DNA of 64,000 bases, taken from NCBI GenBank assembly GCA_963737155.1, contig CAVTRN010000002.1, positions 1,888,001 through 1,952,000 of the forward strand, in the 5' to 3' direction. Shown here piece by piece: positions 28,695 to 28,864 of this stretch; position 1 is the first letter of the stretch; each line of letters begins with the position of its first letter. Made by a program: the position numbers and the translations under genes. A model generated the notes under the pieces. That model was not told the DNA's origin and did no database searches. It worked only from the letters and a program-made list of their open reading frames with translations. The DNA is from Nitrospirota bacterium. Lineage in GTDB: Bacteria > Nitrospirota > UBA9217.

Positions 28695-28864
28695 AATCTT
28701 GCGCGGCACCTTGTCCAACCCTGGTAATTAGAGGGTCTCAAGAGAGCCCTGACCTTGCTTCATAGGGACAAAGGTGCAAGCGGGGATTATTGACTCTGTA
28801 CTGGAAGGTCGGTTTGGCCGCCTTAGTGGAAGGAGAGATATTTCCCCGCCTACACGCCAAGATT
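28695..28864 (-). ncRNA. Candidate bridge RNA/seekRNA of the IS110 element
   Basis: Basal stem AATCTTGGCG/CGCGCAAGATT encloses two stem-internal loop-stem hairpins whose 3' loop strands both contain CAG (folded by eye). Confidence 0.6.

Follow-up and report, generated by a model that had tools for sequence, protein, structure and literature searches.

A predicted bridge RNA directly downstream of an IS110-family recombinase gene in a Nitrospirota bacterium, with a guide loop that covaries with insertion sites

We analyzed a stretch of 64,000 nucleotides (hereafter, the window) on contig CAVTRN010000002.1 of a Nitrospirota bacterium (UBA9217), the minus strand of which carries an IS110-family insertion sequence of 1755 bp, designated ISA. 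The element holds a recombinase gene, and a predicted RNA follows on the same strand directly after the stop codon (Table 1). In the neighborhood, judged by translation, positions 30396-31547 (minus) encode a response-regulator/histidine-kinase hybrid that ends approximately 160 nt before the ISA left end, and positions 32264-38527 (plus) encode a 2087-aa multi-domain sensor protein.

Table 1. Features of ISA and of its insertion site, in window positions
Feature	Position	Strand	Description or basis
ISA insertion sequence	28481-30235	minus	left end CTTGCTATATTG.. (30235); right end ..CAATAAACCAG (28481)
Left target flank TGCTTC and core AG (30237-30236)	30236-30243	minus	junction comparison
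Right target flank GAAGTT	28475-28480	minus	six bases identical after the right end in three copies, beyond which the flanks diverge
Right-end terminus with TTGACA (28498-28493)	28481-28498	minus	read from the sequence
Recombinase gene, 418 aa, TTG start	28870-30126	minus	DEDD RuvC-like and Tnp C-terminal domains; Pfam, homologues
Predicted bridge (seek) RNA: basal stem, target hairpin, donor hairpin	28696-28864	minus	fold, covariance model, compensatory pairs
Hairpin 1: outer stem GGCGGGG../..CCCCGC, predicted target-binding internal loop, inner stem AAGGCGG/CCGACCTT	28780-28850	minus	fold and model
Target loop 5΄ strand (TCTCCTTCCACT)	28825-28836	minus	predicted right-target guide, antisense to the right flank
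Target loop 3΄ strand guide AGTACAG	28796-28802	minus	sense of the left flank and core AG; predicted left-target guide
Hairpin 2: outer stems GC/ACCTT/TCCC.., predicted donor-binding internal loop, inner stem AGGGC/GACCCT	28706-28777	minus	helices 3-6
Donor loop 5΄ strand AGCAAG	28754-28759	minus	antisense to left end CTTGCT; predicted right-donor guide
Donor loop 3΄ strand ACCAG, then G	28720-28725	minus	sense of right end ..ACCAG; predicted left-donor guide and core
Inserted module	28528-28686	minus	approximate limits; homologous to the module in the 3΄ regions of ISB and ISC

A search of the bacterium's own genome (G000) returned a second copy of ISA that is 97% identical across window positions 30243-28475, together with a truncated third copy and a paralogous site lacking the element. 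The second copy (L036/L002; contig C2:1954696-1956466) contains one in-frame TGA in its recombinase gene, and the third (L003/L004; C1:837901-839064) is equivalent only to window positions 29418-28475 and lies in two pieces. The limits of ISA were taken as the bounds of identity to the second copy and to the partial third copy, and we place the element from 30235 to 28481 because of the junctions of the second copy, the third copy and the empty site. These ends are conserved in at least 58 homologous elements.

On the minus strand, the junctions in the window read ..AAATGCTTCAG^CTTGCTATATTG.. and ..CAATAAACCAG^GAAGTT.. (a caret marks the junction), whereas the left junction of the second copy reads ..TTTGCTACAG and the empty site (L006) reads ..TTTGCTCCAG^GAAGTA.., or ..CCAG^GAAGTA in short. 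We assigned the left flank by comparison with the second copy (..TGCTACAG), with the paralogous site that lacks the element (..TGCTCCAG^GAAGTA) and with the genome's four unoccupied TGCTNCAGGAAGT sites. The target is a repeated host motif, TGCTnCAG^GAAGT, four copies of which (as a 13-mer) are unoccupied in the genome, and target duplication is absent. ISA itself holds one copy of the core AG (28482-28481), and in each of the 58 elements with both junctions located, the left flank as well as the right end terminates in AG. An earlier note on this DNA, made from the sequence alone, had named CAG as the core in both 3΄ loop strands; two CAGs are indeed present in loop 1, together with CTTCC, and loop 2 contains AGCAAG and ACCAG, but the core is AG because the preceding base varies at the left junctions of relatives. 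The donor that the note had predicted (ac-CAG-cttgcta on the minus strand) and its target arm GAAGTT both agree with the junctions of the second copy and the empty site.

The ISA site lies within repeated host sequence (..AACTCnnnTGCTnCAG^GAAGT..), which occupies window positions 30244-30300 and 28300-28480 and recurs on C1 (L006) and at C2:13090 and C2:230063. A place on contig C1 shares 95.5% identity with the right flank (28300-28456) and has an additional stretch of approximately 35 nt. Soil-metagenome reads (four contig sets) display other flanks at the ISA left end. Of the listed sequencing runs that contain the element, none is recorded as RNA.

The recombinase scored above the cut-off for both PF01548 (DEDD_Tnp_IS110; 8.6e-26) and PF02371 (Transposase_20; 1.9e-22). 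Residues D22, E76, D119, D122 and S331-G332 are invariant in 10 homologues and align to the catalytic positions of IS621, and the start codon occupies a position common to the ATG or GTG starts of relatives. Overall similarity to characterized proteins is low, with E values of 1.6e-13 for IS621 (in two stretches) and 8.5e-11 for ISCro4. A protein search of 401 genomes of the phylum identified homologues in 19 genomes, the window's own included, at 29-100% identity, and a contig scan with an alignment of 10 proteins added 80 homologous loci from Nitrospirota, Desulfobacterota-type 'delta proteobacteria', Brocadiaceae/Scalindua and others. The recombinase had been described in the earlier note as a programmable one of a longer subtype; its 418 aa bear out the length, since the frames of relatives span 405-445 aa, whereas 'programmable' is drawn from the natural diversity of guides only.

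When the element ends are joined, TTGACA of the right end stands 17 nt from TATATT of the left end (30230-30225), and relatives retain both hexamers at the same spacing from the ends. IS110/IS1111 elements are known to form a junction promoter (PMC11187229), and TTGACA-17-TATATT would be the one expected for the IS110 family. A simple promoter and terminator scan detected neither a promoter nor a T-run terminator next to the RNA; its only hit was the promoter-like TAGAAA-17-TATACT at 30187-30215 (minus), inside the left end. The GGCTATACT part of this hit is conserved across relatives, which suggests that ISA may have a resident promoter besides that of the junction. Comparing the terminal 40 nt at both ends of ISA, we found no exact inverted repeat longer than 6 bp (TATTGT); in relatives, 43 of 52 distinct end pairs have one of 4-6 bp, and its position is not consistent.

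We computed the folding energy of the 170-nt segment 28695-28864 and obtained a basal stem around two hairpins, each containing an internal loop, as had been drawn by eye in the earlier note (MFE –62.1 kcal/mol, z = –3.22, with 2 of 200 shuffled sequences as good). The stability of the whole 395-nt 3΄ non-coding region was not unusual (z = –1.39). A search of positions 27900-30500 against Rfam 15 returned no matching family, the sole hit being bxd_2 at chance level (E 0.7). In an alignment of 3΄ regions, the two hairpins were found just after the stop codon in every homologue of at least 40% identity. We then built a covariance model (R1) from 12 homologues, a check that the note had proposed, and R1 matched directly after the stop codon in 79 of the 80 homologous loci (E ≤ 1e-11); at the single locus lacking a match (L084), the sequence stops 26 nt past the gene. 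Within the window, R1 gave one match only, at 28696-28864 with 157.9 bits, and weak matches (E 1e-5 to 3e-4) followed the genes of four relatives of 29-31% identity.

The stems are conserved through compensatory changes. In the alignment fitted to R1, 96.4% of cells were paired, compared with 85.1% in shuffles, and 32 of 37 pairs had changed on both sides, a count of 19.8 ± 1.7 in shuffles and never above 16 in slid controls; because of this fitting and the relatedness of the sequences, the figures are generous and the shuffle tests inflated. The signal of structural conservation is large. In helices 1 and 2, which form hairpin 1, all 20 pairs exhibited both-side changes. Comparative support for the basal stem is modest: the duplex of cognate flanks reached –7.32 kcal/mol, compared with –5.43 ± 0.25 kcal/mol with shuffled partners, and 0 of 2000 shuffles were as low, a count that kinship inflates. 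G-U pairs are frequent on the minus strand (the two outermost pairs, for example, have 17 and 19), which fits an RNA in the sense of the recombinase gene. As the stems are kept while the loop strands of hairpin 1 vary freely, the region displays the pattern of a guide scaffold. Among relatives, the RNA is separated from the right end by 20-331 nt. In L048/L049, where this spacing is 331 nt, a weak second match to the model lies on the opposite strand, over the target hairpin, and in L073 the donor hairpin is broken by approximately 55 nt of foreign sequence.

Hairpin 2 is, by its relation to the element ends, the predicted donor loop, which would read the joined ends. Its loop strands are nearly invariant, and so are the ends. 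In 57 of 58 distinct rows (all but L116), the 5-mer of the 3΄ strand repeats the final 5 nt of the right end, and it followed the rare right-end variants ACAAG (6 rows), ATAAG (4), ACTAG (1) and ATCAG (1). The 5΄ strand AGCAAG and the left-end CTTGCT form a 6-nt complement that was found in 20 of 25 distinct loop/end rows, and in L099 both sides have changed (CGTGCT with AGCACG). Thus, the match of AGCAAG and ACCAG to the donor, which the note had observed in this copy, is borne out by the way in which loop 2 tracks variant ends. The G after ACCAG is the first base of the right flank, a handshake-like position; across relatives, the donor-loop base after the core equaled the first right-flank base in 51 of 57 rows (A 8, G 39, T 4), and in the same rows the second base after the core showed no relation to the flank.

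Hairpin 1 contains the predicted target loop. In its 5΄ strand, CTTCC (28832-28828) is antisense to the core G and GAAG of the right flank and would constitute the right-target guide, pairing with the top strand. The earlier note had likewise read CTTCC as the guide for the target arm, but its left-target guide, TCCAG, was wrong: the guide predicted to pair with the bottom strand is AGTACAG, one register further 3΄. AGTACAG matches the second copy (L036) at 5 of 7 bases (TACAG) and the window copy at 4 of 7 (T.CAG), of which 3 are contiguous (CAG); a 51% relative, L118, has an identical left guide and a left flank ending in ..AGTACAG, which match at 7 of 7. With a right-guide match of 5 nt (GGAAG) and these few left bases, the guide assignment would not be significant on the window copy alone.

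In relatives, the 5΄ loop strand is antisense to the element's own right flank over up to 10 nt. Element ends were located by pattern (left, CTTGCTATA..; right, ..TTGAC..AAACCAG), and 58 of 86 RNA-matched loci entered the comparison, the other 28 being left out as an end or 12 nt of right flank was not found. A fixed pairing register for the right-target guide fails across relatives, in which the spacer to the inner stem is 1-4 nt, and because this spacer varies, the longest exact match in any register was used. Over 40 guide classes, the mean longest match was 6.20 nt on the right and 6.05 nt on the left, whereas flanks shuffled among classes gave 3.38 ± 0.18 and 3.39 ± 0.17 nt, respectively, and the observed values were reached in 0 of 5000 shuffles. 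Grouping into 15 coarse clusters left the outcome unchanged. Long matches are illustrated by L051 (right flank GGGTCTGTGA, 10 nt; left flank TTCGTAG), L087 (right GACTCTTGC, 9 nt; left TCAAAAG) and L071 (right GACGCAAA, 8 nt; left CTCGCAAAG, 9 nt, or 12 nt counting the run-on of CTT into the left end). In the closest relative, the guide reads CATCC instead of CTTCC and the flank GATG instead of GAAG, one matching base change. Poor matches also occur, with 2 and 2 nt in L106, 3 and 3 in L058, 3 for the left guide in L054/L098 and L095, and 3 for the right guide in L097 and L119. In 41 of 50 distinct guides, though not in the window's own, the target-loop bases that follow the core extend the match into the left end by C, CT or CTT.

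The loop assignment, which was tentative in the earlier note, thus holds by covariation: loop 1 covaries with the flanks of 58 homologous insertions, the relation to insertion sites that the note had suggested examining. The case now rests on comparative evidence rather than on the 5-7-nt matches first observed. Taken together, the comparisons make it very probable that positions 28696-28864 (minus) encode the bridge RNA or seekRNA guide of an IS110-family insertion sequence. The RNA would be transcribed with, or processed from, the recombinase transcript, and this transcript would probably be boosted by the TTGACA-17-TATATT promoter formed on circularization. It would bind the 418-aa DEDD/Ser recombinase, the internal loop of hairpin 1 reading the target and that of hairpin 2 the joined ends, and recombination at the AG core would insert the element, with no target duplication, into ..TGCTnCAG^GAAGT...

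We considered the possibility that the RNA is a bridge RNA by descent and that the window copy is stranded or decaying and no longer moves. The poor fit of AGTACAG to the occupied site (4 of 7 bases), the TGA in one and the truncation of another of the three copies, and the foreign module of approximately 160-215 nt between the RNA and the right end would all fit such a history. However, the 418-aa recombinase frame of the window copy is uninterrupted and has every catalytic residue, both ends and the promoter hexamers are undamaged, and the RNA scores at the 157.9 bits given above. Moreover, the two full copies, 97% identical, occupy different sites and both carry the module; therefore, the element moved after acquiring it. 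The spacing between RNA and end is variable among relatives, as noted, and, according to the accessible text of PMC11208160, IS621 tolerates some guide mismatches. On balance we regard a stranded copy as unlikely and the window copy as putatively active, although the in-frame TGA of the second copy and the truncation of the third make activity in this genome uncertain.

The earlier note had left unexplained a structured block at 28560-28665. The block exists, but it belongs to a lineage-specific insert rather than to a conserved part of the bridge RNA. ISA and its 89% relative both have approximately 215 nt between the RNA and the right end, only the first 85 nt of which are common to the two, and the inserted module is absent from all other homologues. 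The module is approximately 190 nt long, with a core of approximately 57-65 nt (GGGGGnTATCAGGATATGGACTG..ATCCTGGGGCATTTGTGAGA) that was found in 9 of 64 genomes of the bacterial family, at up to 10 places per genome (L156-L182), in the 3΄ regions of ISA and of two other IS110-family elements, ISB and ISC, and in a few other contexts. The proteins of ISA, ISB and ISC are just 26-27% identical across their C-terminal domains. In ISB the module separates the stop codon from a conserved RNA-like region, which in most ISB relatives adjoins the stop codon directly; in ISC the module lies after that element's candidate guide RNA, recognized by eye. In the soil-metagenome run X2, joints skip 109, 199 and 204 nt between approximately 28500-28506 and 28616-28706; with sides of 20-28 nt and 90% likeness, they are a weak hint of relatives lacking the inserted block.

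ISB is present in six copies in the genome (L008-L013; C2:171.5k, 232k, 498k, 925k and 2320k; C1:842k); it is approximately 1754 bp long and encodes a 369-aa protein, with an inverted repeat of 14 bp (ATGGTTGACAGTTG) in subterminal position and 532 nt of non-coding sequence on the 3΄ side. Its flanks suggest a target ..AT^CAGTTT and a junction promoter TTGACA-17-CATAAT. ISC, with an IS110-family protein of approximately 355 aa, was not found in the window's genome and occurs in related genomes (L161, L166, L169, L172, L174, L175, L179, L160). It inserts at the host motif of ISA (..CT[T/A]CAG^GA[A/T]G..) despite the 26% protein identity, and in its 3΄ region guide-like strands track the flanks when inspected by eye (CTTCC/GAAG, CATCC/GATG, CTTTC/AAAG).

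A functional role of the block at approximately 28528-28686, as a second guide or a helper RNA of ISA, appears very improbable. It adjoins the bridge RNA and contains local hairpins, and a truncated target-loop RNA cooperates with the bridge RNA of one IS110 element according to the accessible text of a preprint (bioRxiv 10.1101/2025.10.25.684509). Against such a role, R1 has a single match in the window, the block occurs in no homologue other than the 89% relative, the same module precedes the bridge RNA in ISB and follows it in ISC, 23 distinct copies yielded no consensus structure (RNAalifold –1.2 kcal/mol), and no part of the block was seen to vary with the flanks. The lone R1 match likewise led us to reject the block as a second bridge RNA, and the RNAalifold outcome to reject it as a conserved RNA fold. 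As a part of the ISB bridge RNA it was rejected since it is missing from most ISB relatives, whose conserved RNA-like region has a different start, and as an IS200/IS605 right end or omega RNA since the upstream 372-aa frame is of the IS110 family. A guess by eye that it lies downstream of the end of an IS3-type gene in L158/L168 was dropped, no intact frame having been found there. We thus class the block as an optional shared module rather than a part of the bridge RNA. By analogy, it may be a hitchhiker like the ssr9 module of ISPpu9, which is described in the accessible text of Pares-Guillen et al. (2025, PMC12288879) as an optional extra module that follows an IS110-family transposase gene and has more copies elsewhere in the genome.

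It is scarcely credible that the two-hairpin region is a regulatory or terminator structure in the 3΄ untranslated part of the recombinase mRNA, or a protein-binding DNA site, with incidental loop matches. The matches in the window copy are only 3-6 nt and the hairpins directly adjoin the stop codon. However, the loop 1 strands, although approximately 300 to 1400 nt away from the ends, change with the flanks across 40 guide classes (a result reached by 0 of 5000 shuffles), loop 2 tracks uncommon variants of the right end (57 of 58 rows), a T-run terminator was not found, and compensatory stems with freely varying loop strands are the pattern of a guide scaffold.

Read as a bridge RNA, the ISA RNA is an instance of a kind of system, the RNA-guided IS110 family, that is already known, in a branch that is little-studied. 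It would add a well-supported natural family of bridge or seek RNAs, with relatives in uncultured Nitrospirota, Desulfobacterota and Planctomycetota, in which a single conserved scaffold of approximately 165 nt carries no fewer than 15 clearly distinct natural target specificities. The comparisons also map, by covariation, the guide positions, the AG core and the handshake-like positions of a recombinase type only distantly related to those of IS621 and ISCro4. Such families are source material for new programmable recombinases and may help clarify the IS110 and IS1111 layouts. For genome annotation, the reading accounts for a 1.76-kb insertion and for its preference for a repeated host motif.

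A downstream guide RNA has been described for IS1111-type elements and mentioned for some IS110-type elements (PMC11187229; accessible text of PMC11208160). The seekRNAs of ISEc11, ISPa11 and ISKpn4 (Siddiquee et al. 2024, PMC11187229), like the predicted RNA of ISA, contain short segments complementary to both target strands. IS1111-type seekRNAs are located 3΄ of tnp and have the top-strand match 5΄ of the bottom-strand match (PMC11187229), and in the accessible text of PMC11208160 the bridge RNAs of the IS1111 group are predicted in the right end. ISA likewise has a long non-coding region with the guide RNA downstream of tnp and the top-strand match first, and it resembles IS1111 elements in its predicted circle junction promoter and in site-specific insertion into repeated host sequences (PMC11187229). 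In contrast, IS1111 transposases have 330-350 aa (PMC11187229), compared with 418 aa in ISA, and their C-terminal motif is GL-P----S(t)G, compared with GL-L----SG. IS1111 elements also possess a long subterminal inverted repeat, and the accessible text of PMC11208160 defines the group by subterminal inverted repeats of 7-17 bp, whereas the best repeat of ISA is 6 bp. The ISA RNA further differs from IS1111 seekRNAs in its length of approximately 165 nt and its two simple internal loops.

According to the accessible text on IS621 (Durrant et al. 2024, PMC11208160; Hiraizumi et al. 2024, PMC11208158), the bridge RNA forms two hairpins with one internal loop each, the first for the target and the second for the donor, as predicted for ISA, and within each loop the DNA strands recognized on either side of the 2-nt core are opposite ones. 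Both recombinases are of the DEDD and Ser type with aligned catalytic residues, and in both systems the 3΄ loop strand carries core-adjacent bases that match the opposite DNA partner in a handshake-like manner (accessible text of PMC11208158). However, the IS621 RNA lies in the left end upstream of the gene, whereas that of ISA lies 3΄ of the gene, and the strand order is reversed: the 5΄ loop side pairs with the bottom strand in IS621 and is predicted to pair with the top strand in ISA (accessible text of PMC11208160). The core of IS621 is CT, the complement of AG on the gene strand of ISA, and the handshake-like bases of ISA follow the bottom-strand guides, whereas those of IS621, in the same accessible texts, follow the top-strand guides. 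Read on the opposite strand, the AG core would become CT and the layout would be IS621-like.

IS110-type elements with a downstream non-coding region (PMC11187229) share with ISA a long transposase, within the 395-455 aa range of the IS110 subgroup, and a subterminal repeat that is short or absent; the accessible text of PMC11187229 mentions these elements and describes no RNA, target or structure for them. We thus file ISA as a putative RNA-guided system of the IS110 family and assign no subgroup. A more speculative suggestion, which we put forward with considerable doubt, is that ISA represents a distinct third layout, in which recombinases of approximately 420 aa without long subterminal repeats (IS110-like) would be combined with a 3΄ two-loop RNA of reversed strand order (IS1111-like) and with handshake-like bases on the bottom-strand guides, and in which the 3΄ region would serve as a docking place for a module of approximately 190 nt that spreads among three unrelated IS110-family elements, possibly hitchhiking on their recombinases. 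If this is the case, handshake-like bases on bottom-strand guides would imply a mirrored order or geometry of strand exchange compared with that of IS621.
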